From positions 23,154 through 87,153 of the IMG/VR virus record IMGVR_UViG_2791355197_000001: 64,000 nt of DNA; one strand, given 5' to 3'. This stretch comes from a virus. The notes under the pieces are model-generated. The model ran no database searches and was not told the origin of the DNA. It saw only the letters and a list, made by a program, of their open reading frames with translations. The translations under genes were made by a program, and so were the position numbers. Shown here in pieces: positions 22,753 through 52,518 of the stretch; within the stretch, counting starts at the first letter, position 1, and each line of letters starts with the position of its first letter.

Positions 22753-23208
22753 CTACTCGTTGACCGCGGTATTGTCGATCACCAGGCCAATCTTCGGTGG
22801 CTCAGGCGGCTGAAATGCCCCCGATGAAGCCACTCGCTCCGCCGCGGCCTTGCGCTCCGCCTTCTTCCCGACCTTCTCCGGCGCCGGCGGTGCAGCCGGT
22901 ACCTCGACGCCGGCGTTTCCGAGATCGGCGATCGCCTGAGCAGCGGCCGACACCCGGGTCATCTCCTCGAGCTTCTTGATGCAGGTGGCGTTGCCCTTCT
23001 TCGCCTGCTTGAAGAGCATCCCGACCACTTCGGCCCGCTTCTTGGCCACACCGGTCGCAATCTCTTCGGGGAAGGACTTCACCAGCGTCGGCGTCGAGAT
23101 CCCGAGCACTCGAGCGCATTCATCCTGGGACATTCCGCACGAGATCCACTCCTCGACCTTCGTGCGCTGCGCTTTCGTCGGTTTGAACGCCGGCCGACCT
23201 CGGGCCAT
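22753..23208 (-). CDS. terS: Terminase small subunit
   Basis: MARGRPAFKPT...GMSQDECARVLGISTPTLVKSF (HTH), GKKAER C-terminus; upstream of terL. Confidence 0.8.
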   Translation of the reverse strand: MARGRPAFKPTKAQRTKVEEWISCGMSQDECARVLGISTPTLVKSFPEEIATGVAKKRAEVVGMLFKQAKKGNATCIKKLEEMTRVSAAAQAIADLGNAGVEVPAAPPAPEKVGKKAERKAAAERVASSGAFQPPEPPKIGLVIDNTAVNE

Positions 23209-23264
23209 GCCGAAACTCCAATTTCTTTGCCGTTTTGGGTGAACTGGACGAAATTTCCGGTCGG

Positions 23265-23350
23265 CCCAAAAAAAATTGTGCGAATGAGCCCCCGTGCGGT
23301 AGGGGGTCCCGCCGGTTCCTAGACTTTTCGACCCCATACCCCTTGGCCTC
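23265..23350 (-). other. Putative cos / packaging-initiation region
   Basis: Minus-strand GGGGTATGGGGTCGAAAAGTCTAGGAACCGGCG...GCACAATTTTTTTT just upstream of terS; resembles the G-run/A-T-run layout I recall upstream of terS in HK97-like phages (pattern recall, not verified). Confidence 0.4.
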
Positions 23351-23558
23351 GAGCGGCTGGCCGGCATGGCGCGCGCTGGCGTGTCGTCGGCGCTGGCGCT
23401 GGATTGGTCGGGGCGTTCGGCCTGGCTGATCAGTGTCAGCCGATATGCTGGCGCCCGTGGCGCCGCGCCGCGCGCGGCAACCGTCCGCGCTCTCTCTCGC
23501 CTGTCTGTCTAGGTGGTGACGTTCTGTTGACGTGGCAGGCGCGCGCCGATCCGCCGAG

Positions 23559-23732
23559 CTAGGCCGCACCATGCGGCGCGCTATCGCTGGGCATTGCGTC
23601 CCATGCGTCGGCGCTGGTGATGGTGCTGCGCTCAACCCGGATGACTGGCAGCACAATGACGGTTGCAGGCTGGCGCCGTTGTCGGCGGGCTCCGCGTGGC
23701 GCGCTGGGCGGTAGCTCGACTACCTCGCCCAT
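23559..23732 (-). CDS. Small hypothetical protein
   Basis: MGEVVELPPS...PATVIVLPVIRVER, 57 aa. Confidence 0.4.
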   Translation of the reverse strand: MGEVVELPPSAPRGARRQRRQPATVIVLPVIRVERSTITSADAWDAMPSDSAPHGAA

Positions 23733-23751
23733 GCCGTGCCCCTGACATGCG

Positions 23752-23785
23752 AAACCCGCCAAGGCGGTGCGACCTGGCGGGCTTT
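23752..23785. terminator. Hairpin, possible terminator
   Basis: AAACCCGCCA/TGGCGGGCTTT imperfect inverted repeat. Confidence 0.4.
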
Positions 23786-23960
23786 GGTTTGCAGCGACAA
23801 TGCGCCGAATGCCTGTTCTGAATCGCAAATTGAGTCGGCTGTCAAACCGCTGTCGCACGGGTTGGCAGTGGATGACGGCGCCGACGGCGCTTGATGCATC
23901 TCAATTCCGTGATAGTTGCGGACTGGATGACTGCGGCATAACTCAATCTTGAGGCGTCCA

Positions 23961-24272
23961 ATGACCGATACAAAGGCGAGCAAGGGCACGGCCAAACGCA
24001 AGCCAGCAAGCCGGGCCTTCTCTTCCGCTGATGCTTCACTGAGAATCAGCGCGGCTGAATTCCGGGCCTGGCAGGAAGGCGCCAGCCTCTCGAATGCCGC
24101 AGCTGCGCGCCTGCTCTACGTGTCTGAAAATACCTTGGCGCAGTACCGGGCCAATGGTGCGGGGCCGGATATCGCGCGCCAGATTTGGGCGATCATTGCC
24201 GGGATAAGGCCGGATACTGGACGGCAGCGCGCCGAATTGCTGGGCCGGATCAATGCCGCGCTAGGCGCCTAA
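23961..24272 (+). CDS. Cro/XRE-like HTH protein, first gene of the plus-strand array
   Basis: GAGG RBS before ATG 23961; ISAAEFRAWQEGASLSNAAAARLLYVSENTLAQY HTH pattern. Confidence 0.7.
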   Translation: MTDTKASKGTAKRKPASRAFSSADASLRISAAEFRAWQEGASLSNAAAARLLYVSENTLAQYRANGAGPDIARQIWAIIAGIRPDTGRQRAELLGRINAALGA

Positions 24273-24414
24273 TGCCTCAATATTGCGATACCAAGCCGGG
24301 CCATTCTAACTTTTTTTCGCAATTTTGCGTTTTGCCAGTTGACGGCCGCGCCGATATCTGCGCATGTACGCATCACCACGGCGCGATTGTGCGCAACTTC
24401 AAAGGCCCGGCGAA

Positions 24415-24588
24415 ATGATCCCCTTCATTTCCTTTTGTATCGCTAACCCGGCTTTCACTCTGGCCATGCTCGCAGCGATCTATACCGCTTGCTGGGCCGC
24501 CCTCGTCCCCTTCCTTTACGCGCCCGCCAAGTCTCGGCGCCTTTCGATCCGGCGCCGCGCGCGCCGCTCCAGCTTGTCGCGCCGCTGA
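24415..24588 (+). CDS. Small membrane protein (57 aa)
   Basis: Follows motif A copy 1; hydrophobic N-terminal half and Arg-rich tail. Confidence 0.55.
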   Translation: MIPFISFCIANPAFTLAMLAAIYTACWAALVPFLYAPAKSRRLSIRRRARRSSLSRR

Positions 24589-24639
24589 GGCGGTGCGGCT
24601 CAACCCGCGCAATCGTGCGCAACTGAAAAGGCAAACTCG

Positions 24640-24711
24640 ATGAAAGACTTTCTTCTCTTCCTCGCCGTGGCGTTCGTTGGAACGCTTGTAATCGTCGCCT
24701 GCTGTATCTGA
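24640..24711 (+). CDS. 23 aa hydrophobic peptide MKDFLLFLAVAFVGTLVIVACCI
   Basis: Follows motif A copy 2 and AAAAGG; single-TM composition; below the ORF-track cutoff. Confidence 0.55.
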   Translation: MKDFLLFLAVAFVGTLVIVACCI

Positions 24712-24803
24712 CGATTTGCAGCCTATGCCGTGCACGTCGCGGCATAAACGGCAAATCGCCGAACCCCGCGCAATTGTGCGCAACTCCAAAGGAAGTAACT
24801 GCA

Positions 24804-25682
24804 ATGACTGTCTACACCTCAACCGCCCGTTTCGATGGTACCGCCCGCGCTCTCACCGAGAACGAATTGCGCAAGCTGGCGCCGTCGGTTTTCGCGGTCG
24901 ACGCTCACCATTCACGTTCCGAACGCTTCCAGCCTATCCCGACGTTTGACGTGCTGCGCGCGCTGATGGCGGAAGGCTTCCAGCCCGTCGGCGCGAAACA
25001 GAGCGTTGCCCGGCTCGATGATCGCCGCGACTTCACCAAGCATCTGATCCGCCTGCGCCGTCTCGACAACGCCGCAACCTACACCGTCGGTGACACCGTC
25101 TGCGAAATTCTCCTCAAGAATGCCAATGACGGGACATCGGCCTATGACTTGATCGCCGGGCTTTTCCGTGTCCGTTGCCTCAACAGCCTTGTGGCGCAGG
25201 TCGGCACCGTCGAATCCGTCAAGGTCCGCCACACCGGCACCGCGCAGGATGTTTCGCACAAGGTGATTGAGGGCACCTATCGCGTGCTGGGCGAGGCCCA
25301 GAAGGCTCTATCGGCGCCGCAGGACTGGGCGCGCCTGGCACTCGACCGCGACGAAAAGCAGGTGCTGGCAGAAGCCGCGCACGTTCTGCGGTTCGGTGAT
25401 GCGGAAGGCGAAACGAATACGCCGATTCAGCCCGCGCAGTTGCTGCAGCCGCGTCGCCGCGACGACGTCGCCGCCGATCTCTGGACTACGTTCAATGTGG
25501 TTCAGGAAAACGTCATCCGTGGCGGGCTGTCAGCTCGCGGGCTCGATGCCAACGGCCGCCGCCGTCGCGTCACGACTCGCGCCGTTAACGGGATTGATCA
25601 AGACGTGAAACTGAACCGCGCCCTTTTCACGCTCGCGGCCAAAATGGCGGAGCTCAAAGGCGCGGCTCGCATCGCGGCCTAA
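24804..25682 (+). CDS. DUF932 family protein
   Basis: LAPSVFAVDAHHSRSERFQPIPT, FTKHLIRLR, LKNANDGTSAY, GLFRVRCLNSLV, DLWTTFNVVQENVIRGG. Confidence 0.9.
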   Translation: MTVYTSTARFDGTARALTENELRKLAPSVFAVDAHHSRSERFQPIPTFDVLRALMAEGFQPVGAKQSVARLDDRRDFTKHLIRLRRLDNAATYTVGDTVCEILLKNANDGTSAYDLIAGLFRVRCLNSLVAQVGTVESVKVRHTGTAQDVSHKVIEGTYRVLGEAQKALSAPQDWARLALDRDEKQVLAEAAHVLRFGDAEGETNTPIQPAQLLQPRRRDDVAADLWTTFNVVQENVIRGGLSARGLDANGRRRRVTTRAVNGIDQDVKLNRALFTLAAKMAELKGAARIAA

Positions 25683-25694
25683 GCGATTGCAGCC

Positions 25695-25719
25695 CATGCC
25701 CGGGCTTGTCCCGGGCATG
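25695..25719. repeat. Rhizobial REP-like palindrome CATGCCCGGG-CTTGT-CCCGGGCATG
   Basis: Perfect 10 bp stem; resembles the extragenic palindromes I recall from Bradyrhizobium-group genomes. Confidence 0.6.
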
Positions 25720-25776
25720 ATCGGCAACCGCCGGAAACCGCGCAATTGTGCGCAACTCGAAAAAGGGAAAATTGCC

Positions 25777-25881
25777 ATGAAGTATCGCCGCCACGATTCC
25801 GACCGCAAGCCAACCGACAAGCGGACTCGCCGCGCCGTGCTGAGCCAAGGCAAGCGCGCCTTTCTGAATTCCTGCCTCTGA
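25777..25881 (+). CDS. 34 aa basic peptide
   Basis: MKYRRHDSDRKPTDKRTRRAVLSQGKRAFLNSCL after motif A copy 4. Confidence 0.55.
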   Translation: MKYRRHDSDRKPTDKRTRRAVLSQGKRAFLNSCL

Positions 25882-25893
25882 GGAGCTAGGCCT

Positions 25894-26190
25894 ATGCCTG
25901 TTATCGAACTGGACGGCGCAGTCTATTTCAATTGCTGTACCGGCACCGCTGCGCCGGATTGGTCTCAATTCGTCGCGCTCGAAACCGGCGGCTGCACTAC
26001 GGAAACAGACGCGCGAACGGGCCAAGAATGGACCAACGGCGGAGAGCCGGACGACGTTGCCGAATTCTGGACTGTTTACGGCCGCCTGAAGGAAGGCGGT
26101 TGCGAGGCCATTACGGATTGCAAGACGCGGGCTGAGGTTGACGCGGTCGCGCTCCGCCTCTCCGAGCTATCCGGGCTTCCCGTTCATTGA
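25894..26190 (+). CDS. Acidic hypothetical protein (98 aa)
   Basis: GAGG RBS; EFWTVYGRLKEGGCEAITDC. Confidence 0.7.
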   Translation: MPVIELDGAVYFNCCTGTAAPDWSQFVALETGGCTTETDARTGQEWTNGGEPDDVAEFWTVYGRLKEGGCEAITDCKTRAEVDAVALRLSELSGLPVH

Positions 26191-26282
26191 CGTTGCGACA
26201 CTGCGCAGGCCTGGCCCTGCGCAGCACGGAACGCCAAAGCGGACTAACGCGCGATTGTGCGCAACTCAAAAGGACTCTGGAT

Positions 26283-26486
26283 ATGCGAGGGATTTGGACT
26301 CTCTACGTCGACCAATACGGCAACCGCTGGGGCGCCAGCACGGTTGCGGAGCTGCGCGGCAAGATCGGCGGCGGGCGCATCGCCAAGATGTATCGCGACA
26401 AGGCGAACGGCCGCGCCGTCCACTGCGGCTACATCATCGGTTCGCATTGGTGCACCGCTTATAGGCCTGTCGAGGTGCCCGCATGA
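26283..26486 (+). CDS. Hypothetical protein (67 aa)
   Basis: After motif A copy 5; MRGIWTLYVDQYGN...KMYRDK...HCGYIIG. Confidence 0.7.
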   Translation: MRGIWTLYVDQYGNRWGASTVAELRGKIGGGRIAKMYRDKANGRAVHCGYIIGSHWCTAYRPVEVPA

Positions 26487-26623
26487 TGGCGGAGACATTC
26501 ATTCCCGACAACATCCACGGGATTCCCGTTGGCTTCTACACGGACCGCGGAATCGCCGCGCTGCTGCGCAGTTTCTGCCGTTATCCCGCCGCGGTGCGGT
26601 TCATTGCGGACATGCTGGAATAG
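26483..26623 (+). CDS. Hypothetical protein (46 aa)
   Basis: ATGA-coupled; MMAETFIPDNIHGIPVGFY...FIADMLE. Confidence 0.55.
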   Translation: MMAETFIPDNIHGIPVGFYTDRGIAALLRSFCRYPAAVRFIADMLE

Positions 26624-26691
26624 CGCGGGCCTGGCCCGCCGACGTTTCGAACCCGCGCGATTGTGCGCAACTGAAAGAGGAGCAATTCAAC

Positions 26692-27255
26692 ATGGCTTGG
26701 CAGTTCTATGACTTTTTCGTCCATCCGACTATCCACGGGCCGATGCCGGAAAAGCGCTGGATTCCGGCCGCAAACGACAAGCCGCACAAGGTGCGGCGTA
26801 GCTCGAAAGTCACCCGCACCGCTGGCGGCGTGTCCGCTGACGATTTGAACGAACGCCACGCAATCGAGTACGCGCGTTGGCTGGCGCGGCGAGACAACGC
26901 CGATATCCCGTCCGGTACCTCGCCGCTAATCATCTGGGACGGCGTGACAGACGCCGCCGGAAAATGGCGCAAGCGCGCCCGTGCAGTCGAGTTTGGCACG
27001 CGGCGGACAACTCACACCGGCTACGGCCGAAACGCCTGCACAACGCACCACTGGGACGTCGCCGCCCGGATCGAAATTCCGCATTGGGATTGGCAGCCCG
27101 CCGAACCGGTTGAGGAGATCACTCCGGAAGCGGTACCGGTCCCGGTTGCGCCTTCCTTCAAGATCCCGGGCAGGATCCTGCGGACATCATGCCTTGTGCC
27201 AGTTTTGGCGCGTGTCCCGGTTGCGCCTTCCTGCGCAATTCGGCTTGCGGCTTGA
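26692..27255 (+). CDS. Hypothetical protein (187 aa)
   Basis: After motif A copy 6 and GAGGAG; MAWQFYDFF...SCAIRLAA. Confidence 0.7.
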   Translation: MAWQFYDFFVHPTIHGPMPEKRWIPAANDKPHKVRRSSKVTRTAGGVSADDLNERHAIEYARWLARRDNADIPSGTSPLIIWDGVTDAAGKWRKRARAVEFGTRRTTHTGYGRNACTTHHWDVAARIEIPHWDWQPAEPVEEITPEAVPVPVAPSFKIPGRILRTSCLVPVLARVPVAPSCAIRLAA

Positions 27256-27265
27256 GACGGCGCCG

Positions 27266-27625
27266 ATGAAACGCCAGCAAGCTCCGACGTTCAATCAACT
27301 TTGCGATGCATTGCAGTCGCGTCCTTCGCCGCGCTCGCAAGCCGAATGGCGCGAGGCCTCAACAGCCATGCGCCTGGCCCGGCGCCATCCCGGCCGCGTC
27401 GGCCGAACGATCTATATCGAATGCGGGACATTTGCGCGCCGCATTTACCTTGAGGCCACTTGGGGCGGGGTGAATTGCTACAACGGCCCGCACCCATTCG
27501 GCTACGTCAACATGATCGCTCACCACCGGTTCGTGCTCCGGCAGGGACTGCGGGAAGGCCGCGTTGCGGAAGCCCGACACTTTGCTGAGGCCTCGCGCCT
27601 CCGCGGGCCGGTGCCGCTGCCATGA
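27266..27625 (+). CDS. Hypothetical protein (119 aa)
   Basis: MKRQQAPTFNQL...; co-oriented and tightly packed. Confidence 0.55.
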   Translation: MKRQQAPTFNQLCDALQSRPSPRSQAEWREASTAMRLARRHPGRVGRTIYIECGTFARRIYLEATWGGVNCYNGPHPFGYVNMIAHHRFVLRQGLREGRVAEARHFAEASRLRGPVPLP

Positions 27626-27729
27626 CGCGAAAGCCTCAACCCCGCAAACAGCGCTGCCCCTACTGCAGGCAGTTGCGGCCGTTCTACATGATCGCCGCAC
27701 ACATCACCCAATGCGAGGCGCTTAGGTAG
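27622..27729 (+). CDS. 35 aa C2HC zinc-finger-like peptide
   Basis: MTRKPQPRKQRCPYCRQLRPFYMIAAHITQCEALR, ATGA-coupled. Confidence 0.5.
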   Translation: MTRKPQPRKQRCPYCRQLRPFYMIAAHITQCEALR

Positions 27730-27832
27730 CGTCCCGGCTACGACCGATTTCCACGGTGGATGACGTTCCCCCCCGGCGTCGGCCGATTCCAAATCCGCGC
27801 AATAGTGCGCAACTGAATAGGAGGTTTCCGAG

Positions 27833-29251
27833 ATGACTGACAGCAACACCAAGCGCGCATTTTCGCCTACCGGTAGCGAAATCGTCGCCACCGCCGACAT
27901 GATCCCCGGCAACGCGATGTGCTTTTTCTATGGCCGCAACGCCGATGGCACGCTCGAAATGGACCATTCGAGCGAGGGCACTCGCATGTGCTGGGATGGC
28001 GCCATCACCAAGACCGACGAGCGCGGCCAAACCCTATTCATCGCCCAGGACGGCACCGAGTGGCCCGAAGATTCGATCCACCTGGAAGGCGAGGAGCCGC
28101 GCCAGATGCCGGCCGCGCCGGATTCCCCGGTTGCGCCTCTTCTCTCCGCTCGCGAGCATGCAACCGTTTTGGCCGCTCTACGCCACTGGCAGCGCCATCA
28201 AGCTGATAGCGTCGGCGTGAGCCGCAACGTGATCCCGGAGGACGATATCGCCACTATCGGCGGCACCGTGGCGCCTATGCGCGCCGCTGAGGTCGATGCC
28301 CTTTGCATGCGGCTCAACTCCCCGGTTGCGCCTTCGCCCGATTGGCGCGAGATCGCGCGCGACCTGGCTGGCGCGCTCGACGCCTGCAGCCATCAGATTG
28401 GCCAGATGTCCGGCATGTTCGATGACGAGGACGGAACGATCGCGGCCGCCGTCTCGGACGCTGATGACGCGACGGAGTCCTATCGCAAGGCCATCGCTGG
28501 CGCACGGCCTTCGCGCTCGCCTGCGCTCGGAACGGTTTGGACCTGCACCACCGACGGCGACGAGTGCGCGCTCACCACAACCATTCACGCCACGGAAGCG
28601 GAGGCGCTGGAGCGTGTTCGCGACGACTTGCGGATGGATTGCAAGCCAAACCAATTGAAGCACCTTGGGGCGCTGCCCGCGGTTGATTTGCCGGAAGCGT
28701 GGACCGAAGCCAACGACGGCGCGTGCATCATCGAAAGCCACAAATTGCCGTGCCTCCCCGCTGCGCCCTCGCCCCTTGCCGTCGTGGTTGAACAGGGCCT
28801 TGTCGCGCGCGTCATGTCCGACAATCCCGAGCTGATCGGTGCGCCGGTGCTGCTGATCGATCATGACACCGAAGGCGCCGACGCCGACGATGTTTTCCAG
28901 ATCGCCGCGAATGACGGCAGGGCCGTGTCAATCGTCGGCCACATCTTCAACGTCGAGGCATCGGACGTGCACTTGCCAGCTGTCATGGCAACCATGCTGG
29001 AGCGCGGCCGCGACTTGCGGCAGCCACCTGGCGGATTTCCGGGTCAGGATGATCGGGCGCGCGCCGAAGGCTGGTGTCTGATTGAGGACGCTGGCGGGCT
29101 GCTGCGCATCGAGGCTGACAGCGACTCCGACATTTTCAGCCCGGGCGGCGTCAGCCACGACGACGAGGCCGAGGCCTTCGTCAAGGCGAAAGCGGCCGAA
29201 GGCAGCGAGTATCACATCGCGGCGCTTGCCCGGGTCGGCACCGCGCAATAG
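27833..29251 (+). CDS. Mosaic multi-domain hypothetical protein (472 aa)
   Basis: After motif A copy 7 and GGAGG; several short acidic modules separated by SPVAP/PAAPSP linkers. Confidence 0.75.
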   Translation: MTDSNTKRAFSPTGSEIVATADMIPGNAMCFFYGRNADGTLEMDHSSEGTRMCWDGAITKTDERGQTLFIAQDGTEWPEDSIHLEGEEPRQMPAAPDSPVAPLLSAREHATVLAALRHWQRHQADSVGVSRNVIPEDDIATIGGTVAPMRAAEVDALCMRLNSPVAPSPDWREIARDLAGALDACSHQIGQMSGMFDDEDGTIAAAVSDADDATESYRKAIAGARPSRSPALGTVWTCTTDGDECALTTTIHATEAEALERVRDDLRMDCKPNQLKHLGALPAVDLPEAWTEANDGACIIESHKLPCLPAAPSPLAVVVEQGLVARVMSDNPELIGAPVLLIDHDTEGADADDVFQIAANDGRAVSIVGHIFNVEASDVHLPAVMATMLERGRDLRQPPGGFPGQDDRARAEGWCLIEDAGGLLRIEADSDSDIFSPGGVSHDDEAEAFVKAKAAEGSEYHIAALARVGTAQ

Positions 29252-29339
29252 CCCCGGCTACGATCGATTTCCCTCACCCCCGAGCTACGACCGATTTCGC
29301 AAGGCGCAATCGTGCGCAACTGAAAAGGAGCAAGATCAC

Positions 29340-31496
29340 ATGAACCATACCGCCACCTATTCGCCCGATGACAACAAATTGCGCCTCTATCCCGCGCACC
29401 GCCTCGACGCCGAGGAGTACGCGCGCGTAAAGGCCGCCGGCTTCAAGTGGGCGCCGCGTCAAGAACTGTTCGTCAAGCCGACCTGGTCGCCGGAAGCCGA
29501 GGACCTGCTGATTGATCTCGCTGGCGAGATCGGCGACGAGGATACGAGCCTGGTGGATCGCGCCGAGCAGCGCGCCGACCGTTTCGAGGACTACAGCGAC
29601 AAGCGCCTCGCCGACGCCGAGCGCGCGCGGAAGACGGTCGATGAGATCGCAGAGCGCTTCTACATGGGTCAGCCGATCCTTGTGGGCCACCATTCGGAGA
29701 GGAGCGCGCGCAAAGACAAAGAGCGCATGGACAACGGCATGCGCAAAGCTCTCAAGCTCTGGGATACCTCGAACTATTGGACCGCGCGCGCGGCCGGCGC
29801 GATCGCTCACGCGAAATACAAAGAACTGCCGGCCGTCCGGCATCGCCGCATCAAGACCATCGAATCCGACAAGCGAAAGCTGGAAAAGTCGACGGCCGAG
29901 AATGAGCGTCAGCTCAAAGCTTGGCGGATTGTCGCCAGCATCACCGACGCCGAGAAGCAGCGCTCAACCGGTCTCACCGTGGCGAACGTCGGCGGCTATT
30001 GGTCAATGTCTTTCCCCCTGGCCGACTATCCGCGCGATCCGCCGGCCTCGCAGTACGAGGGCCCCATGGGCCTTTGGTCGGCTATCGATGGGAACGTCAT
30101 CACGGCCGCCACGGCAGCCGAGCTTGCGATTGCTGGCCTGGAACGCTCAGCCCCGCGCAAAGCCCGCTGGATTGCTCATTACGACAACCGCCTGGCCTAT
30201 GAACGCGCGATGCTGGCCGAGCAGATCGGAACGGAGGCGAGCGCCAACCCGCTGGCCGACCGCTTCGCTTTCGCTGTCGGCGGCCAAGTGCATGCTGGCC
30301 GATACGACGAATGGCTGACCGTGACGAAGGTCAACCGCGGCGCCAACGGTTCGGTTTCAAGCATCACCACCACCACGCCGGCCGGCTCGCGCAACAAGCT
30401 GGCGCGTTGGCGAGTCGAGAGCGTCCGCGACTATCAGGCGCCGAGCGAGGAGACCGTCGCCGCGGCGAAGGCGGCAAGCAAGCTCCCGCCGCTCTGCAAC
30501 TATCCCGGCGATGACTTCGCCCGCCTGACTCAGGATGAATACGACAAGGTTCCGAAGGACTATCGAGGTTATCGACCGCGTGCCGCTACCGAGACGGTCG
30601 GCGCGCACCGTACCCGCGTAGCCATCGGGGCCTATGCGTTCCGCGGCACCTGCGACCCCAACAAGCGACATTCCTACGCCGGGGTTTTCATCACGGATGC
30701 AAAGCGCGTCGACCCGCCCAAGGTCGTGCCAGCCCCCGAGCCGCAGGAGCCGGCCGAATTCGTCGCCGAGTATGTCGCGCCACCCGCTGTTGACCTTGAC
30801 GCGACGCTGGGAACAATCGCCGAGATCATGGCGGAGCCGTCGCCGGTTGAGTCCGTGCCGGAAGTCGTCCCGGTTGCGCCCGCGGAATCGCTGCGCCATC
30901 TCCCGGATACGGCCGATTTGCCGGCGCCGACAGCCGCGGACACGTTCGAGGCAATGCGGGCGATGCTCAGGGGTGGCGGCGTGCAGGTCGTCGTAGCCCC
31001 GCAACTCTTCGCGACCCCGCCCACCTTGGCGACCGATGTGATCGAGGCGGCAGACATTCAGCCCGGCCACCTGGTGCTGGAGCCGAACGCCGGCACGGGG
31101 GCCCTCGTCTATCCTGCACTGGAGCGCGGCGCGAGCGTTACCGCTGTTGAGATAAACGACGTCCTGGCGCGGACGCTCGGGCTCGATCGTCGGATATACC
31201 TGACGGTGCGACTCGATTTCCTCACTCTCGAACCGTCCGACGAGTGGATGTTTGACCGCGTCGTGATGAATCCCCCGTTCGAGCGCGGAGCAGACATCAA
31301 GCATATCGAGCACGCGCGGCGGTTTCTGAGACCTGGCGGCCGGCTGGTCGCGATCTGCGCCGACGGCCCGCGCCAACGGGCGAAGCTCGAACCGATCGCA
31401 GCGGAGTACCGCGCCTTGCCCGCCGGGTCCTTCAAGGCCGCCGGCACGATGGTCAACACGGCGTTGGTCGTCATCGACGGGCCGCCGCCTGGATAG
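29340..31496 (+). CDS. DUF3560-domain protein fused to an N6-adenine-type SAM methyltransferase
   Basis: N-terminal TATYSPDDNKLRLY, GQPILVGHHSER; C-terminal VLEPNAGTGAL (motif I) and VVMNPPF (motif IV). Confidence 0.88.
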   Translation: MNHTATYSPDDNKLRLYPAHRLDAEEYARVKAAGFKWAPRQELFVKPTWSPEAEDLLIDLAGEIGDEDTSLVDRAEQRADRFEDYSDKRLADAERARKTVDEIAERFYMGQPILVGHHSERSARKDKERMDNGMRKALKLWDTSNYWTARAAGAIAHAKYKELPAVRHRRIKTIESDKRKLEKSTAENERQLKAWRIVASITDAEKQRSTGLTVANVGGYWSMSFPLADYPRDPPASQYEGPMGLWSAIDGNVITAATAAELAIAGLERSAPRKARWIAHYDNRLAYERAMLAEQIGTEASANPLADRFAFAVGGQVHAGRYDEWLTVTKVNRGANGSVSSITTTTPAGSRNKLARWRVESVRDYQAPSEETVAAAKAASKLPPLCNYPGDDFARLTQDEYDKVPKDYRGYRPRAATETVGAHRTRVAIGAYAFRGTCDPNKRHSYAGVFITDAKRVDPPKVVPAPEPQEPAEFVAEYVAPPAVDLDATLGTIAEIMAEPSPVESVPEVVPVAPAESLRHLPDTADLPAPTAADTFEAMRAMLRGGGVQVVVAPQLFATPPTLATDVIEAADIQPGHLVLEPNAGTGALVYPALERGASVTAVEINDVLARTLGLDRRIYLTVRLDFLTLEPSDEWMFDRVVMNPPFERGADIKHIEHARRFLRPGGRLVAICADGPRQRAKLEPIAAEYRALPAGSFKAAGTMVNTALVVIDGPPPG

Positions 31497-31570
31497 CCCC
31501 CCGGCTGCGCCCTCTCGCTTACGACCGATTTCCCACCCCCCGGCTGCGACCGATTTGAGAGGAGACCCCC

Positions 31571-31810
31571 ATGACCGACTTCATCATCTGCAGAAACTGC
31601 GGCACCGAGGAGCACGCGCACCTGATCGACGCTAAGCCGGAGATCGGCGCCGATGAAAACAGCGACTTCACCCGCATGGAATGCATTGCCTGTTATGGGC
31701 CCGGCTGGCGACCGGCTGCATCAACGTCCGATTTCAAACTCTCGGTGGCGCCGCACTTAGCGCCGTACTACGCGGCCTATGCTGGGCGGATGGGCTGGAC
31801 ACCGCAGTAG
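31571..31810 (+). CDS. Small Cys-containing (zinc-ribbon-like) protein
   Basis: CRNC...CIAC; GAGAGGAG RBS after motif B. Confidence 0.65.
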   Translation: MTDFIICRNCGTEEHAHLIDAKPEIGADENSDFTRMECIACYGPGWRPAASTSDFKLSVAPHLAPYYAAYAGRMGWTPQ

Positions 31811-31885
31811 CCCGGCTGCGCCCCTGCGTACGACCGTTTTCCCGTCATCCCCTCGGCTACGGCCGATTCTGAAAGGAGAATTACC

Positions 31886-32257
31886 ATGCTCATCACCGTC
31901 AAGGCCGGCGCAAAAGTCGATGGTCACACGTTCAGCAAGGACTCGAACCAAAACTTCGGGCGAGAGAAAGCCGAAGGGCTTATCAAAGATGGCCGCGCGC
32001 AGCCCGTGGCGTTCGATGCTGAGGGTAACTGCCGGATCAATACCAGGTTTGATGCTTGGCTCAACGAGCACGGCGCCCTGGCTATCGGTTCCGGTGGCGA
32101 CGCCTTTCTGCATCTCTCATCAGAATTCCCGCTCGCGTACTTGCCCGAGGCCTTGCAAGCCTATCAAGCGGGGCATCACCACGGCATGGGTGACGGCCGC
32201 ATCAAGCTGCAGTCAGAGATGCGGGACCTGCTCTGCGTGGAGCCCGCTCGCACATGA
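31886..32257 (+). CDS. Hypothetical protein (123 aa)
   Basis: AAAGGAGA RBS after motif B. Confidence 0.7.
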   Translation: MLITVKAGAKVDGHTFSKDSNQNFGREKAEGLIKDGRAQPVAFDAEGNCRINTRFDAWLNEHGALAIGSGGDAFLHLSSEFPLAYLPEALQAYQAGHHHGMGDGRIKLQSEMRDLLCVEPART

Positions 32258-32529
32258 ACGCCGAGCAGATCATAGCTGCTGCCGGCCTCAAGATCGCGAC
32301 ACGCGCCGAGTTCGACGCCGAGTCCGACGTCCCCGCCGGGGTTCGCCTGTTGGCCGCGCGCATCTTCAAGCGTTGGGGCGGCGACTTCGTGGTGTACGAC
32401 CCGGCCGGCGGCGATGACGGCTGGCTGCTGATCGATGATGATCGCGACCAGATCATAGGCGAGACGGTCGAGCACCTCGGACGGCTCGAGCCTGAGCCGC
32501 CGGCGCCAGCGCAAGGCTCACTGTTCTGA
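32254..32529 (+). CDS. Acidic hypothetical protein (91 aa)
   Basis: ATGA-coupled; ends QGSLF. Confidence 0.65.
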   Translation: MNAEQIIAAAGLKIATRAEFDAESDVPAGVRLLAARIFKRWGGDFVVYDPAGGDDGWLLIDDDRDQIIGETVEHLGRLEPEPPAPAQGSLF

Positions 32530-32569
32530 TCCCCCGGATACGATCGATTTTGAACAATAGGAGAACGAT

Positions 32570-33136
32570 ATGACGCAATCCGACTACAAGCACGGCACCT
32601 GCGCATGGTGTGGCAACCAAGAAGAGGTTTTCCGCGACAACATGCTGTGCGACACCTGCGACAGCGATACGGTCTATTGCACTGTCTGCCGATCGCGCCA
32701 GCACCATGAATCGAAATGCCGCCACGTTTTCCAAAGCCACGGATGCGGCGAATGGCGCGGCGCCGGCTTCGATCCAATCGACAACGAGATGAAGGCACCT
32801 TTCCACCGCCTGTTGTCGGCCATGGGCGAAGACTTCGCGGTCGATCTGAAAACTGCGATCCGGTCAGGACGGTTCTTCACCTGGACAATAGCGCCGATGA
32901 TCGGCGGTGGCGGAATGCTGGAGCTCAACGGCATGCCGCAGCGCGACGGTCGTTCGATGCTATTCGAGTGGGGCGATGCCTTGATCAAGCTCGGCGAAGG
33001 ACGGCGCGCGGAGGAACTGCACGACGGCTATCGATGGATCGTGAGCCTATACAAGCGCAACACCACGAAGGCCAACCGGACCACCCTCGCCTGGATCGAT
33101 CAATGGTTGTGGCCTTTTGCCGGGGCCGCGTCATGA
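32570..33136 (+). CDS. Hypothetical protein with N-terminal Cys pairs
   Basis: CAWC, CDTC, CTVC, CRH; AGGAGA RBS after motif B. Confidence 0.7.
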   Translation: MTQSDYKHGTCAWCGNQEEVFRDNMLCDTCDSDTVYCTVCRSRQHHESKCRHVFQSHGCGEWRGAGFDPIDNEMKAPFHRLLSAMGEDFAVDLKTAIRSGRFFTWTIAPMIGGGGMLELNGMPQRDGRSMLFEWGDALIKLGEGRRAEELHDGYRWIVSLYKRNTTKANRTTLAWIDQWLWPFAGAAS

Positions 33137-33507
33137 GCCGAAGAGTCCGACGCGTTCCCGCAGACTGGCAGCACCCCCGCAACTCCGGCGGCCGCTATGT
33201 GCCGCTGGCTGAAGCCATTCCGGATGCGCCTGCGCCATACCCTGCGGCCAGCTATATGCCGGCTTGGCCAGCAGCGGAACGGACGCACTGGCAGTTGTAC
33301 GAGACCACCAGCGCCGGGACGCCGCTATCACCGCCCTGCCCGTCGCCCGAGGCCTTGGCCAAATGGCTGGCCGGCCACCATGTGGAGGCCGCACCGGGCT
33401 TCACGGGAACGGAGGCGCAATGGCTGGCCGCGATCAAGCGCGGCGGCGTCATCCCGCCGGTGATGACCGTCGGCAAGCGCCAGGTCAATCCGCTCGACTA
33501 CACCTGA
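33133..33507 (+). CDS. Conserved phage hypothetical protein
   Basis: RRVRRVPADWQHP...WQLYETTSAGTPLSP...PEALAKWL, a pattern I recognise from phage early proteins. Confidence 0.65.
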   Translation: MSRRVRRVPADWQHPRNSGGRYVPLAEAIPDAPAPYPAASYMPAWPAAERTHWQLYETTSAGTPLSPPCPSPEALAKWLAGHHVEAAPGFTGTEAQWLAAIKRGGVIPPVMTVGKRQVNPLDYT

Positions 33508-33601
33508 TCGGCCGGGACTCCCGGCTACGATCGATTTTGTGCTACCCCCTCGGCTACGGCCGATTCCGGGCGATTGTGCCCAACCGGAAAGGAACTCTCA
33601 G

Positions 33602-33925
33602 ATGTCCCCACCCCGATTTGTTCACCGCAAGATCTCGGCCGAGGACTTCAAGTCCGAACTGGCCAAACAAGGCATGTCAGTGCCGGCGTTCGCAAGGGTC
33701 TGGTGCCAGAACCTGTCGACGGTCACGAAATGGGCGAATGGCGGGAATGACATTCCGACCTGGGTGCCGATCGCGCTGACCATGATGACGCTACCGAACG
33801 CCCACGGGACCGCGCGCATGGCGGCCGCAGCGATGATCCAGCAGGACCGGCTGCATCCCGAACTCGGTGAATTCCCCTACCAGAAGCTGCGGCAGATGCC
33901 TGCGGACGACGAGATCGAGGAATAG
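33602..33925 (+). CDS. Cro/XRE-like HTH protein, last gene of the array
   Basis: ISAEDFKSELAKQGMSVPAFARVWCQNLSTVTKWANG; after motif A copy 9. Confidence 0.75.
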   Translation: MSPPRFVHRKISAEDFKSELAKQGMSVPAFARVWCQNLSTVTKWANGGNDIPTWVPIALTMMTLPNAHGTARMAAAAMIQQDRLHPELGEFPYQKLRQMPADDEIEE

Positions 33926-33932
33926 CCCCCGG

Positions 33933-34139
33933 CTACGATCGATTTTGCGGACCCCGCTTGCGCCTTGCTGCCTTGGCTGTCCGCTTTTTTGCCGGCGATC
34001 GCTTCACCGCTGGAGCCGCTGCCGGGGTCTTCGCTGCGTCCTCGGCATCGAGCTTGCGTTTCAGCGCTTGCATCTCCTCGTACCGGGCTTCCCGCTGCTG
34101 ACGCAGCCGGTCGGCGCGCGGTGATTGTTCGCGCCCCAT
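33933..34139 (-). CDS. Basic hypothetical protein (68 aa)
   Basis: Coupled to the 34139-34414 gene; Lys/Arg/Ala-rich. Confidence 0.5.
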   Translation of the reverse strand: MGREQSPRADRLRQQREARYEEMQALKRKLDAEDAAKTPAAAPAVKRSPAKKRTAKAARRKRGPQNRS

Positions 34140-34423: not shown

Positions 34424-34768
34424 CTACGATCTCATGCGGTTTGCTCGAGCCTGGATGCCGGCCCGGGTGTTGTGCGAGTTGCAGGCGCAGCGGCCATTAC
34501 TGAGATCCAGCGCCAATTCTGGCCGATCGCGCACATCCTGAATGTGATCGGCGTACATCTGGTCTCCCTTCTCACGGCTGCGCTCGCAACGGTGGCCGTT
34601 CTCGACGTATTCGCAGCGCCAACCTGCTCGCTTCTTGACCTGCAACGCCCACTGCTGATGCTCAGCAGTCTGATAGTGAGGATCCGCGCGCTTCGGCGGA
34701 GGCTTGACCTTCCTGGTGTCCAACGTCGGGACGCGTGGGCTGAGAGATGGGATGCGCGACCGCCTCAT
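34424..34768 (-). CDS. HNH endonuclease (HK97 gp74-like packaging cofactor)
   Basis: WRCE...C...ADHIQD...NGRCACNSHN. Confidence 0.85.
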   Translation of the reverse strand: MRRSRIPSLSPRVPTLDTRKVKPPPKRADPHYQTAEHQQWALQVKKRAGWRCEYVENGHRCERSREKGDQMYADHIQDVRDRPELALDLSNGRCACNSHNTRAGIQARANRMRS

Positions 34769-36153: not shown

Positions 36154-36648
36154 TCACATCGTGATGAACTTTGCGCCGAGCTGCCGCAGCATTTCGTAGG
36201 GCCCGATGTACTCGACGCCGAACTGCTTGCAGACATTCGGGATCTTCGGCTTCTTCGATGTGGCGTCGACGAGCTGCTCGCCTGTCACGACGATCATTCC
36301 GTCCACCTGGGCTCGGGCGATAAGCCAGGCGTCGGCACCCTTGAGGAATTCGCTGGCGTTGTGCTGCGGGTACGTCTTGACGACATATTCCGCGATTGGC
36401 TGATAGGCGGCCTGAACCGGCGCGGCCGGCGGCTGGAAGAACGGCGTGCCGTCGCGGTCCTTCACCCAAACAGCCAGTTCATCGCCGAAGCCGACCATCT
36501 CCTCGTAGACGGTGCGGCATGACACGATCCGGCCAGACGCTGACTCCTTGTCGAGCCAGGTCCAGAATCCGGGCACGATATCCATGGCGTAGGGGCCGTT
36601 CTGCGCTTGGATGAAAATGTTGCTGTCCAAACAGTACGGCTTCGGCAT
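36154..36648 (-). CDS. DUF4411 family PIN-like nuclease
   Basis: YCLDSNIFI, FWTWL, ADAWLIARA, VVTGE, KIPNVC. Confidence 0.88.
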   Translation of the reverse strand: MPKPYCLDSNIFIQAQNGPYAMDIVPGFWTWLDKESASGRIVSCRTVYEEMVGFGDELAVWVKDRDGTPFFQPPAAPVQAAYQPIAEYVVKTYPQHNASEFLKGADAWLIARAQVDGMIVVTGEQLVDATSKKPKIPNVCKQFGVEYIGPYEMLRQLGAKFITM

Positions 36649-36651
36649 CGA

Positions 36652-37815
36652 TCACCGCAGCTCCAACTTGTCGGCCACTGCACGCAGCAGCGGGACCTTG
36701 ACACCGAGCAGGCGCGCCGCATCCCGGTACAGGGTGCGGCCCTCGAACGTGGCGTTGATTACAGCCCTGGTGAACAGCGAACCGTTACGCGAGCGAAGGG
36801 TGACGTAGAAGTCGCCGCCGCCTTCATCGCCACCGCTGTCCCGCTGCCGGAAGCGGGCAAACTCGCGCCGATACATCTCGTCGATTTCGCGTTGGTCGAC
36901 GTCGAGCAGATCGGATGCCCGCCGCAGCAGCACCAGCGAACTCACGCGATAGCGCCGCACCAGATGGCCGATGTTGGCCTCGATGCTTACCTTGTAATTC
37001 CAGTGACGCCGCAGGCTTTCCGCCGGCACCAGCACCTCGGCCGCGACGGCGTTGCAGAACTGCTCGGTCCTCGCCTCTTGCCGCTGGCTCTGCGCCAGTT
37101 CGACGTTCGATATCCCGGTGGCGCCAATCCACAGGTGTGCTATCTCGTGCGCCAGCGTGAATATCTGTGCGGCTTTGGCGTCTCGGCCGTTGATGAATAC
37201 GAGCGGCGCCACCTTGTCGGCGATGGCGAAGCCGCGGAATTCGTCGACGGACAGCGCGCGGTGAGTGTTGTTGCCCACTATCCCGCTGCGCATTACCATG
37301 ACGCCCGCCGCCTCGGCCTGGCGGATGAATAGGCGTAGGAAATCCTCCCAGCTGCTCGCCTCCGCCCGCATGGCCTCATCGATCTTGAGTACCTCGGCGA
37401 TACTGCGCGCGACCTCGTTCGGGTCGCTCCTAATCGTGTAGGCGCCCACGAAGCCCAGCGGCTCGGCGCCCTCCTGCTGCCGGTAGTCCCGATACCACTC
37501 GTGCTTCCGGATGATATCGTTGACCAGGTCGTTAAAGTCGACACTAGGCCGCCGCAGTTCGGCGTTGCCCACGGTCCGCAGATCCGGCAACGCGAACTGC
37601 TCCGCCGGCGGGCTCTGCAGGAACAGGTAGCCGAATGGGATTCGCAGGACGTTCGCGAGGGTCTGCGCCTGCTTGAATGTTGGCTTGGCCTCGCCGTTCT
37701 CCCATGCATCGAGGCGGTCCGGCTTCACGCCGAGCCTTCCCGCCACGTCCTCCGGCGCGAGCTTGGACCGCTCGCGCGCCCAGCGCAGAACCTCCGGTGT
37801 GATGAGCGCTTCCAT
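36652..37815 (-). CDS. XRE HTH fused to ImmA/IrrE (M78) metallopeptidase
   Basis: N-terminal LRWARERS...WENGEAKPT HTH; FTLAHEIAH HExxH; EQFCNAVAAEVLVP. Confidence 0.92.
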   Translation of the reverse strand: MEALITPEVLRWARERSKLAPEDVAGRLGVKPDRLDAWENGEAKPTFKQAQTLANVLRIPFGYLFLQSPPAEQFALPDLRTVGNAELRRPSVDFNDLVNDIIRKHEWYRDYRQQEGAEPLGFVGAYTIRSDPNEVARSIAEVLKIDEAMRAEASSWEDFLRLFIRQAEAAGVMVMRSGIVGNNTHRALSVDEFRGFAIADKVAPLVFINGRDAKAAQIFTLAHEIAHLWIGATGISNVELAQSQRQEARTEQFCNAVAAEVLVPAESLRRHWNYKVSIEANIGHLVRRYRVSSLVLLRRASDLLDVDQREIDEMYRREFARFRQRDSGGDEGGGDFYVTLRSRNGSLFTRAVINATFEGRTLYRDAARLLGVKVPLLRAVADKLELR

Positions 37816-52510: not shown

Positions 52511-52518
52511 CGGCGCCC

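Follow-up and report, generated by a model that had tools for sequence, protein, structure and literature searches.

A repeat-punctuated, colinear accessory gene block between terS and HNH in a temperate Bradyrhizobium prophage

A block of about 10 kb on the plus strand (positions 23961-33945 of the window, the 64,000-nucleotide stretch of DNA analysed here) lies between terS and HNH in a temperate, HK97-like Bradyrhizobium prophage and is best explained as an accessory operon that belongs integrally to a narrow lineage of temperate Bradyrhizobium siphophages and whose gene content is hypervariable. The block is read in the direction opposite to the remaining phage genes and is punctuated by three short repeats (A, B and C), which occur on the plus strand only, far more often than by chance, and nowhere else in the 8.4-Mb bacterial genome. 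The arrangement resembles ones described before in phages and on plasmids, rather than a new system of cassette shuffling. With about even confidence, the block is read as an early operon under an Aca-like HTH regulator, in which the conserved regulatory punctuation would also provide homology for recombination, without dedicated cassette machinery. The features are, in order:

22753-23367 (-): terS (phrog_309 match, 8e-8)
23368-23960 (no strand): non-coding region of about 600 bp between terS and g1; holds the g1 promoter; kept in relatives
23961-24272 (+): g1, XRE/Cro-type HTH, 103 aa; first gene, no motif A ahead
24339-24367 (+): sigma70-like promoter P1, TTGACG-N17-GCATGT; AT-rich upstream stretch; 13 nt before the first A
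24381-24397 (+): motif A copy 1, ahead of g2
24415-24588 (+): g2, membrane peptide with Arg-rich tail (core family F0)
24607-24623 (+): motif A copy 2, ahead of g3
24640-24711 (+): g3, hydrophobic peptide, 23 aa
about 24724-24746 (+): GC hairpin ahead of A copy 3
24768-24784 (+): motif A copy 3, ahead of g4
24804-25682 (+): g4, DUF932 protein (Pfam 3.4e-34)
25695-25719 (+): GC hairpin ahead of A copy 4
25740-25756 (+): motif A copy 4, ahead of g5 and g6
25777-25881 (+): g5, Arg-rich peptide, 34 aa
25894-26190 (+): g6
26201-26224 (+): covarying hairpin ahead of A copy 5
26249-26265 (+): motif A copy 5, ahead of g7 and g8
26283-26486 (+): g7
26483-26623 (+): g8
26655-26671 (+): motif A copy 6, ahead of g9, g10 and g11
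26692-27255 (+): g9
27266-27625 (+): g10
27622-27729 (+): g11, Cys/His-rich
27733-27813 (+): junction module; B 27733-27750, B variant 27772-27789, A copy 7 27797-27813
27833-29251 (+): g12, 472 aa, family not recognised; in relative G401, missing from relative G402
29253-29320 (+): junction module; B 29253-29270, B 29280-29297, A copy 8 29304-29320
29340-31496 (+): g13, fusion of DUF3560 and SAM-methyltransferase (domain match 6e-33)
30869-30880 and 30902-30919 (+): in-frame C and B, inside the inter-domain linker of g13
31500-31556 (+): junction module ahead of g14; C 31500-31511, B 31514-31531, B 31539-31556
31571-31810 (+): g14
31811-31869 (+): junction module ahead of g15 and g16; C 31811-31822, weak B 31823-31840, hairpin-type B 31852-31869
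31886-32257 (+): g15
32254-32529 (+): g16, core family
32533-32550 (+): motif B ahead of g17 and g18
32570-33136 (+): g17, Cys-rich
33133-33507 (+): g18
33520-33584 (+): junction module; B 33520-33537, B 33549-33566, variant A' 33568-33584 (GGGCGATTGTGCCC)
33602-33925 (+): g19, XRE-type HTH, 107 aa; last gene, where an aca gene would sit
33928-33990 (+): block terminator; final B (33928-33945), stem (GCGGAC...GTCCGC) and T6 run
34424-34768 (-): HNH (phrog_589 match, 8e-11)

All elements that the initial annotation had described for this repeat-punctuated block were recovered, and its junction order (stop codon, GC hairpin or motif B, motif A, Shine-Dalgarno (SD), ATG) can be read off the sequence itself. 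The array stands with a corrected count of 19 ORFs (including ORFs of 23, 34 and 35 aa) in place of about 17, and domain matches bear out its DUF932 and DUF3560-methyltransferase genes. A motif is present at 12 of the 18 gene junctions; the remaining six are overlapping or very short, and coupled. The proposed modular, co-regulated unit agrees with a start-associated motif before nine cistron groups (8-12 per element), two bracketing XRE-type HTH genes, and a promoter and terminator of its own, the latter facing convergent minus-strand genes. The non-coding region between terS and g1 has no ORF showing a coding GC3 signal, is 67-71% identical in DNA to G402 and may, to judge from the HNH-terS arrangement, be the cos/packaging region.

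Motif A is a 14-bp dyad, GCGCR-AYNG-TGCGC, with nine copies in the block; as GCGCRATNGTGCGCAAC it gave eight exact copies and one variant, all on the plus strand (24381-33584), and with up to three mismatches 18 matches in the window against 4.5 expected, a number reached in none of 100 shuffles. Motif B, CYCGGCTACGRYYGATTT, is not an inverted repeat and has about 12 copies in the block (as CCCGGCTACGAYCGATTT with up to three mismatches, 11 copies against 0.09 expected, all on the plus strand, 27733-33945), and motif C, CCCGGYTGCGCC, has seven exact copies (plus strand, 27141-31822; 13 matches against 2.9 expected with up to one mismatch). In a search of the whole 8.4-Mb genome, all exact copies of A and all copies of B with 0-1 mismatch fell inside the block. 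With a looser A pattern, 54 of 54 exact copies in five records of 54-121 kb were one-stranded and lay within 10-12 kb, with no control hits; in a sample of 400 genomes of the same family, none had more than two copies of A.

Across ten elements, 101 of 102 copies of A precede an SD and start codon, the dyad ending 13-24 nt before the start (18-23 nt in 81 of the 101); the SD is extended and lies directly downstream. The first A is placed at about +7 relative to P1, a TTGACR-N16/17 promoter being conserved 13 nt upstream of it in all ten elements compared, and a second promoter, TTGACA-N17-TAGAGA, occurs 9 nt ahead of the A of g13 in most relatives. P1 and the other proposed promoters are non-canonical and were not picked up by a strict consensus scan; one or two are recognisable per block, and most A copies have none nearby. 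It is very improbable that A is itself a lineage-specific promoter for host RNA polymerase with a phage factor, B and the hairpins being terminators and each unit being transcribed independently, as a PeSL strictly so called: A lacks -35/-10 features and ends just 3-10 nt ahead of the SD, the recognisable sigma70-like promoters lie upstream of A and not within it, and neither a phage RNA polymerase nor a sigma factor turned up among the ORFs scanned (16.7-51 kb), even though stop codon, stem-loop, conserved motif, SD and start form the PeSL layout (PMC2839356) and whole units, with their own A, are gained and lost between relatives.

The arms of A (4-5 bp) are almost invariant, being identical in about 90 copies, and its centre varies. 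The corresponding RNA hairpin has a predicted stability of -7 to -9 kcal/mol. The most frequent pairing on the sense strand is G5.U10, with G1.U14 in two copies and G5-C10 in one; A.C pairs do not occur, mismatches are confined to the terminal and the innermost pair, and a compensatory variant, GGGC/GCCC (A'), is conserved ahead of g19, a position that it holds in ten tabulated elements. Replacement of T10 by C is never seen in about 50 G5 copies (one G5-C10 copy is listed in the pairing tally), and this constancy counts against a pure pairing constraint, which would permit C. Invariant arms around a variable centre are what a DNA operator for a dimeric HTH protein (434-type) classically shows, rather than a hairpin that serves RNA structure alone, and so speak against the preferred reading.

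A could accordingly be imagined, with a lesser but appreciable probability, as an operator that works purely at the DNA level: a dimeric HTH repressor, be it g1, g19 or that of the prophage, would bind at the promoter and at every internal copy, block initiation and elongation and keep the block silent in the lysogen, comparable to the stoperators of cluster A mycobacteriophages and to the kor and ArdK repressor regulons of conjugative plasmids. The two XRE-type HTH genes within the block, the form of the dyad, the first A just past the promoter and an A-like dyad, TGCGCATGTACGCA, overlapping the -10 region of P1 in this window would fit such an array, for which stoperators are a precedent (PMC9283540). 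An operator needs no fixed distance to the SD, yet nearly every copy directly precedes SD and start; the substitutions in A are strand-specific and wobble-compatible, with one compensatory double change, and most copies are not near a promoter. Stoperators are likewise many short, intergenic repressor sites in one orientation relative to transcription (PMC9283540), but they are asymmetric (13-14 bp) and genome-wide, and the immunity repressor binds them as a monomer, whereas motif A is a dyad, in one block only, tied to the SD.

In the preferred reading as an Aca-like operon, transcription would start at the block's own sigma70-like promoter by the terS-proximal non-coding region and end at its own terminator, the repeats between genes serving as regulatory punctuation. 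An XRE-type HTH regulator encoded in the block, g19 (distal, aca-like) and/or g1, would recognise motif A in the manner of Aca1/Aca2: as an RNA hairpin, both in the 5'UTR and between cistrons, and perhaps as a DNA dyad too; the outcome would be a burst of expression at entry or induction, then shut-off. For g1, a weak HTH_17 match and ESM Atlas neighbours in XRE/HTH_3/HTH_92 clusters were obtained, and the top PDB folds for its AF2 model (pLDDT 72) were HipB, HigA2, C.Kpn2I, Aca10 and Aca2; for g19, the neighbours were HTH_3/Xre-like clusters and the top folds (pLDDT 66) ClgR, HigA2, MqsA, R-M controller proteins (C-proteins) and, bound to a 14-bp palindrome, Aca1. The E-values are weak (0.08 or worse), and such fold matches are generic for HTH domains. 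Aca RNA motifs are inverted repeats directly past the TSS, with about 20 nt between their end and the start codon, and they also occur between genes within anti-defence operons, in clusters of up to three (PMC13551039). In acr-aca operons (PMC13551039, PMC6765145), as in the block, a small HTH gene lies distal to small genes of no known family and motif copies stand between genes of a single operon, and solved Aca proteins are among the nearest folds of g1 and g19. Unlike these operons, the block carries 8-12 motif copies, a distinct A' ahead of the HTH gene, a second HTH gene that opens it and no known acr gene, and no sequence similarity between g1 or g19 and solved Aca proteins was detected.

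Motifs B and C and the GC hairpins may be 3' or intercistronic elements, either weak attenuators (hairpin and U-run) or processing sites. Half of the B copies in the window are without a stable hairpin (-1 to -3 kcal/mol); B keeps its U-run despite a genome G+C of 63%, its non-pairing positions (TACG, GATTT) are conserved as sequence, and the GC hairpins upstream of A covary between elements. RNase E prefers to cleave at RN-WUU, which the GAUUU of motif B fits; parallels are the RNase III processing of T7 early mRNA and the Rhodobacter puf operon. Host RNase E might thus cut a long transcript in A/U-rich linkers, independently of any regulatory protein, and free cistron groups whose ends are stabilised by hairpins, A on the 5' side and a GC hairpin or hairpin-type B on the 3' side. 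The order of 3' hairpin, single-stranded A-rich linker, A hairpin and SD would suit this scheme, as would the covariation, the retained U-run and the location of A at the 5' end of predicted primary transcripts; structural hairpins should drift, yet the arms of A do not, the conserved parts of B do not pair and many B copies are unfolded, which makes the scheme unlikely.

The same block occurs in about ten related (pro)phages. In nine elements 54 gene families were counted, four of them in all nine (4-6 core) and 16 singletons; variation consists of gain, loss and in-place replacement of genes, and A copies delimit the indels between relatives. Homology breakpoints fall in motif zones in 34% of cases against a background of 10.9%, and in 68% against 36% for intergenic breakpoints only, an enrichment that is drawn from pairwise comparisons that are not independent and is partly expected because motifs fill much of the intergenic DNA. 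Variable content with repeats at the junctions is seen in related prophages; the shuffling of units is not supported, gene order being strictly colinear (1889 concordant pairs, 0 discordant). An integron-like, dedicated cassette exchange with A and/or B as recombination sites would account for variable content and breakpoints at the repeats, but can hardly be credited: the genes keep their order throughout, the repeats are linked to the starts and stops of translation, and since A is a 14-bp dyad and B not an inverted repeat, neither resembles attC. As the initial annotation had noted, integrase, Cas and reverse transcriptase are missing from the ORFs scanned (16.7-51 kb), as is any other recombinase near the block. 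Its proposal of a candidate new phage gene-array system is not supported, no recombinase having been found in that scan, no attC-like site being present and close precedents existing in PeSLs (PMC2839356), Aca motifs (PMC13551039) and SAS/ESAS (PMC3203893).

For the Aca-like operon, ordinary homologous recombination at the junction modules (20-100 nt) would produce gene gain, loss and replacement, as at T4 PeSLs, because these modules are the sole sequence common to otherwise unrelated cargo genes. T4-type PeSLs (PMC2839356, PMC4122927) are likewise conserved intergenic modules of 20-100 nt from stop codon to SD/start, flanking ORFans in a hyperplastic region; copies mark the ends of indels between relatives, and the plasticity is accordingly put down to recombination between copies. 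A canonical sigma70 early promoter is part of a PeSL, whereas the conserved core of the block is a dyad beside the SD, promoters are few and the phage is a temperate alphaproteobacterial siphophage. The SAS/ESAS of cluster K (PMC3203893, PMC12699233) are also lineage-specific, one-orientation repeats at a fixed short distance to starts, with an inverted repeat just upstream of the SD; they stand before a subset of non-structural genes of different families and are absent from the host genome. They differ in sequence and host phylum, the repeat described here is confined to one 10-kb block, and departures from consensus keep RNA pairing in motif A but not in ESAS.

The link of the DUF932 and DUF3560-methyltransferase genes to conjugative elements, drawn in the initial annotation, is supported by homologues on the MOBF conjugative plasmid pACP3.3, to which g4 (45%) and g13 (49%) are identical over their full length. 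On pACP3.3 both genes share a strand with SSB, an orphan C5-methyltransferase and kleA, and the array has a start-associated repeat of its own, TAGACCATCWTCAAC, in four copies. As in conjugative-plasmid leading regions (PMC11541004), the two homologues lie on one strand, in the same relative order as on pACP3.3; unlike these regions, the block is on a phage, SSB and a Frpo-type single-strand promoter are absent, and its punctuation motifs have other, unrelated sequences. PADLOC, Pfam, PHROGs and NCBIfam named no anti-defence or defence family in the cargo except the methyltransferase domain. Because the plasmid homologues of g4 and g13 stand beside SSB, methyltransferase and kleA genes, an anti-defence role of the cargo is plausible.

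The stretch at 23961-33945 (plus strand) forms a block of 19 ORFs (g1 to g19), called from GC3, Shine-Dalgarno (SD) motifs and start codons; the array reported in the initial annotation is confirmed, but its number of about 17 genes is not. The window corresponds to positions 223433-287432 of contig C45 in an 8.4 Mb genome, and the prophage in it is of the temperate, HK97-like type, with related loci from Bradyrhizobium embrapense and Bradyrhizobium sp. Ai1a-2. The genes flanking the block are as follows.

22753-23367, minus strand, terS
after terS, minus strand, terL, portal, ClpP-type protease and capsid
34424-34768, minus strand, HNH endonuclease
38-51 kb, minus strand, DnaB helicase, primase, beta clamp, three DNA methylases and a LexA-like DNA-binding protein

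Immediately past the HNH side of the block, at 36154-37815 (minus strand), a DUF4411 (PIN-like) protein adjoins an HTH_3 + Peptidase_M78 (ImmA/IrrE-type) protein, a candidate toxin-antitoxin or defence pair. Three DNA methyltransferases besides that of g13 are encoded at 40219-41541, 43674-46088 and 49696-50319 (minus strand; N6/N4 type, a C5 domain in an 804-aa protein, and MT-A70), and the phage-encoded beta sliding clamp lies at 46301-47710. The G+C content is lower at 52000-56000 (0.586-0.588 versus about 0.63 elsewhere), a stretch between divergent early regions.

Motif A, a 14-bp dyad before start codons, occurs in the block as eight exact copies and one variant, on the plus strand throughout, motif B in 11 copies (0.09 expected) and motif C, CCCGGYTGCGCC, in seven exact copies. 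All exact copies of A and all copies of B with 0-1 mismatch that were found genome-wide lie inside the block. The junction order read in the sequence is stop codon, GC hairpin or B, A, SD, ATG; motifs stand at 12 of the 18 junctions, and the remaining six overlap or are very short. A pattern scan and protein-based searches recovered the same block, with the same flanks, from about ten IMG/VR (pro)viruses and two species-representative genomes, in which the proximal half contains A and the distal half B, all on one strand. Regarding a looser form of A, five records of 54-121 kb contained 10-12 exact copies each, all within 10-12 kb and on one strand. More than two copies of A were found in none of 400 sampled genomes of the same family, which otherwise held single chance copies; nothing among 50,697 deposited phage records matched the block in megablast, and an Rfam scan at E up to 1 yielded a chance snoRNA match only. 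The junction order first described from the sequence is confirmed, and the repeats and the modular block are real and conserved.

The nine complete blocks comprise 54 gene families, of which g2, the g9 family, g13 and g19 occur in all nine blocks, g5 and g16 in eight and g1 in at least seven, while 16 are singletons. Between the window and G402, a related element carrying a homologous block, homology breaks off and restarts at motifs: the g12 unit lies exactly between the A copies at 27797 and 29304, G402 has an additional A-plus-gene unit after g1, and g14/g15 are swapped in G402 for another gene, between B-B and g16. Over all pairs of blocks, 34% of the homology ends fall in motif zones, which make up 10.9% of the blocks (about 3-fold; the comparisons are not independent), and for intergenic ends only, the value is 68% versus 36% (likewise from non-independent pairs). 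Ordered pairs of shared families in the nine elements were concordant in 1889 cases and discordant in none. Genes are gained, lost or replaced where they stand, which is also what has been described for PeSLs (PMC2839356), and are not reordered. The comparison of related prophages bore out variable content with breaks at conserved repeats, but gene order was never altered, and the proposed shuffling of units is not supported.

Likeness to PeSLs extends to the composite stop-to-SD/start module with a stem-loop, found at the 12 motif-bearing junctions, and to indels and replacements bounded by motif copies (the g12 unit and the additional unit of G402). Integrons, in contrast, require an adjacent IntI-type integrase, and among the ORFs scanned at 16.7-51 kb (Pfam, PHROGs, NCBIfam) no integrase or recombinase was found, nor a phage RNA polymerase, Cas protein or reverse transcriptase, in agreement with the initial annotation, which had listed integrase, Cas and reverse transcriptase as missing nearby. 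Their attC sites are imperfect inverted repeats of about 57-141 bp at cassette 3' ends, whereas A is a 14-bp dyad 5' of genes and B an asymmetric motif of 18 nt, and their cassette order is free, whereas no pair is discordant here. A dedicated cassette recombination system is extremely improbable.

Regarding motif A, 82 unique contexts from nine elements (99 with two further elements) gave the consensus ccGCGCR-AYNG-TGCGC-AAy, followed by 1-4 nt, GAAAGGA, 5-10 nt and ATG, where GAAAGGA is an extended SD, complementary to the alphaproteobacterial 16S rRNA 3' tail. An SD and a start codon follow 101 of the 102 copies in ten elements, and the distance from the dyad end to the start codon is 18-23 nt in 81 of these 101. 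Every element carries an AT-rich stretch with TTGACR, a spacer of 16 or 17 nt and a -10-like hexamer, with the first A 13 nt downstream, and in most relatives the A of g13 is likewise preceded, at 9 nt, by a second promoter, TTGACA-N17-TAGAGA; with this spacing A would fall roughly at +3 to +7 when counted from the predicted transcript starts. In the window, P1 (24339-24367, plus strand, before g2) is the only recognisable promoter. A strict scan of the block for sigma70 promoters and intrinsic terminators gave plus-strand values not above those of shuffled controls. PeSL cassettes differ in having a sigma70 early promoter each, as against P1 and, in relatives, the promoter before g13; that the units are morons with their own promoters and terminators is very unlikely. 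Inspection by eye ruled out that A is a direct repeat or a site of the sigma54, ECF or FixK type, since the spacing or the variant before g19 did not fit.

The arms of A are near-invariant and its centre is variable, an operator-like feature that favours A acting as DNA. Where copies depart from the consensus, the sense strand can still pair (most often as G5.U10, twice as G1.U14 and once as G5-C10), no A.C pair occurs, and the copy before g19, A', is a compensatory GGGC/GCCC variant; the predicted hairpin has a stability of -7 to -9 kcal/mol. Such wobble-compatible changes, the compensatory A' and the constant spacing to the SD point to A acting as RNA and count against an array of operators read solely as DNA, which is considered somewhat unlikely. 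At 24359-24372, the -10 of P1 is overlapped in the window by a dyad like A but with a shorter spacer, TGCGCATGTACGCA, which is present in the two closest relatives and absent from the other elements; it is possibly a DNA operator partnered with the downstream A. Internal A copies are preceded by GC hairpins whose sequence changes from element to element while the pairing is kept. Punctuation for processing or stability that works independently of any protein is judged quite unlikely. At 24712-24806 and 25683-25779 an after-stop UUGCAG can pair with a pre-AUG CUGCAA in a long-range helix that would enclose the hairpin and A (fold z-scores about -3), and the z-scores for RNA folds of whole units were mostly not significant.

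Aca regulators are HTH proteins that are encoded at the ends of anti-defence operons and bind an inverted repeat in the promoter; Aca1 and Aca2 also bind an RNA hairpin located from just past the transcription start site (TSS) to about 20 nt before the start codon, and Aca RNA motifs also occur between genes within operons and in clusters of up to three sites (PMC13551039). In the case of Aca2 one protein can act on both RNA and DNA. Motif A, with 8-12 copies per block, fits this RNA-motif geometry, which favours Aca-like control. In acr-aca operons the HTH (or RHH) regulator gene is usually last, and the block has such genes last (g19) and first (g1); the RNA inverted repeat of such operons extends from just past the TSS to about 20 nt before the start, which resembles the position of the first A, 13 nt past the predicted -10. 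A possible counterpart to the promoter inverted repeat of acr-aca operons is the dyad on the -10 of P1, which occurs in the window and its two closest relatives and not in the other elements.

The first gene, g1, has its own promoter and no A, and g19 has A' upstream. Both products are XRE/Cro-type HTH proteins according to language-model neighbours and AF2 models (pLDDT 72 and 66), and their nearest solved folds are HigA, HipB, restriction-modification controller proteins, Aca1 on a 14-bp palindrome, Aca2 and Aca10, with weak E-values, yet uniformly HTH proteins. In a phmmer search of all PDB chains (Aca1, Aca2 and Aca10 included) neither had a match at E up to 1; they differ in this from acr-aca regulators, the comparison covering the Aca families with a solved structure. 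BLASTP found no similarity between g1 and g19, which are therefore not recent paralogues. In the proposed mechanism g19 and/or g1 would control the block in Aca-like fashion through A, an overall picture, drawn by analogy, to which an even chance is given. The peptide encoded by g5 (25777-25881; 34 aa, Arg/Lys-rich, …DKRTRR…GKRAFLNSCL) is conserved in all but one of the nine elements, each time with a separate A copy. It is similar to an arginine-rich RNA-binding motif and offers an alternative candidate for the ligand of the A hairpin.

Motif B (111 unique contexts) is an asymmetric motif of 18 nt that begins a few nt from the stop codon and is often in tandem, in which case the first copy lacks a stable stem and the second, about 10 nt further on, has a U-run and folds into a 5-bp stem with a UACG loop (-9 kcal/mol). 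Pyrimidines invariably occupy positions 12-13, facing G4 and G5; the closing pair is frequently mismatched, and TACG and GATTT are kept as sequence. Another copy lies 3' of the last gene, immediately ahead of the true terminator of the block. Since half of the copies lack a stable stem, a plain intrinsic terminator was rejected as a general explanation of B; the options for its role are an attenuator, a processing element or a second protein-binding site. Copies of B and C also occur in frame within genes.

27141-27152 and 27216-27227, in-frame motif C in g9
28126-28137 and 28321-28332, in-frame motif C in g12
30869-30919, in-frame motifs C + B in g13

These copies encode linkers of the PVAP and LPDTADLP types. 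Those in g13 sit in a linker that varies in the plasmid homologue, and an in-frame GAGG-N-ATG comes after the B copy, directly before the methyltransferase domain; a tandem B-B is kept at the same place in G402 and in a second related element, G401. Such in-frame copies may serve as internal expression signals, or they may be left over from recombination between junction modules.

Post-transcriptional control by two signals, A and B, would have the HTH pair read a hairpin before about ten cistron groups, with a private A' before the regulator gene and B after stop codons, and would time the translation of a large and rapidly changing anti-defence arsenal on the end of the phage chromosome that enters first; this fuller version is unlikely. 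If it is true, RNA control of the Aca type would reach beyond single 5'UTRs to an array of 10 kb, and the start-associated sequences of other phages, long unexplained, would gain a testable mechanism.

Regarding the cargo, g4 encodes a DUF932 protein and g13 a fusion of DUF3560 with a SAM-methyltransferase domain that resembles proteins of giant phages and plasmids and 'orphan MTase' models; the other genes are unnamed throughout. PADLOC detected no defence family in the block apart from methyltransferase-like matches, Pfam and PHROGs recognised only the orphan-type methyltransferase domain as anti-defence or defence-related, NCBIfam gave nothing useful, and g12 had no usable match in the ESM Atlas. 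DUF932 is present in 27 phage records, mostly of about 350 kb. The DUF3560 N-terminal domain matched at least 5000 plasmid records, 4107 of them conjugative, and none of the 50,697 phage records, and the N-terminal 200 residues (29340-29960) share about 70% identity with plasmid proteins of betaproteobacteria, a pattern suggesting that the domain moved from plasmid to phage.

As in plasmid leading regions, g4 and g13 have homologues in conjugative-plasmid arrays of SSB, methyltransferase and anti-restriction genes. The MOBF plasmid pACP3.3 encodes on one strand a C5-methyltransferase, PLD, SSB, DUF932, DUF3560-methyltransferase and kleA, with full-length identities of 45% to g4 and 49% to g13; motifs A and B are absent from this array. 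The plasmid array (record NZ_CP021365.1) has a start-associated repeat of its own, TAGACCATCWTCAAC, in four copies (0.01 expected), each 18-24 nt before a start codon.

NZ_CP021365.1, positions 2300, 5600, 6311 and 8951, copies of TAGACCATCWTCAAC

The genes downstream of these copies are a methyltransferase operon, SSB, DUF932 and DUF3560, and start-associated punctuation may be general to such gene arrays. Plasmid homology and the leading-region literature (PMC11541004, the main text of which does not mention DUF932 or DUF3560) make an anti-defence role of the cargo a reasonable inference. The view of a co-regulated block with variable, plasmid-like cargo stands, given the variable content and the homologues in pACP3.3.

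A conserved non-coding stretch of 600 bp at 23368-23960 adjoins terS and is likely the packaging site (cos). In that case packaging would end, and injection begin, with the promoter-proximal end of the block. In lambda, the right end is the last packaged and the first injected. A first-entering position would, by analogy, parallel plasmid leading regions and the early regions of T7 and T5.

Cluster K SAS/ESAS combine GGGATAGGAGCCC with flanking 17-bp inverted repeats; the sequence of A differs, and the positional logic is shared (PMC3203893). By analogy, the block would be an Aca-type regulated operon with PeSL-like punctuation, both known kinds, and its start association is SAS/ESAS-like. The claim of a new kind of system is not sustained, given these precedents, the lack of a recombinase among the ORFs scanned at 16.7-51 kb and the lack of an attC-like site.

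In the nine elements the block presents about 100 copies of one start-associated dyad, which precede 54 gene families, the regulator gene being preceded by a compensatory variant. It is a compact catalogue of candidate anti-defence genes, in which plasmid leading-region genes (DUF932, DUF3560-methyltransferase) appear to have been acquired by a phage and equipped with the phage's own expression signals. If the model of Aca-like control holds, the block would be an unusually clean natural system in which cistron-by-cistron translational control by HTH regulators of the Aca kind can be tested, and it would illustrate how the exchange of genes in temperate phages is guided by conserved regulatory punctuation.
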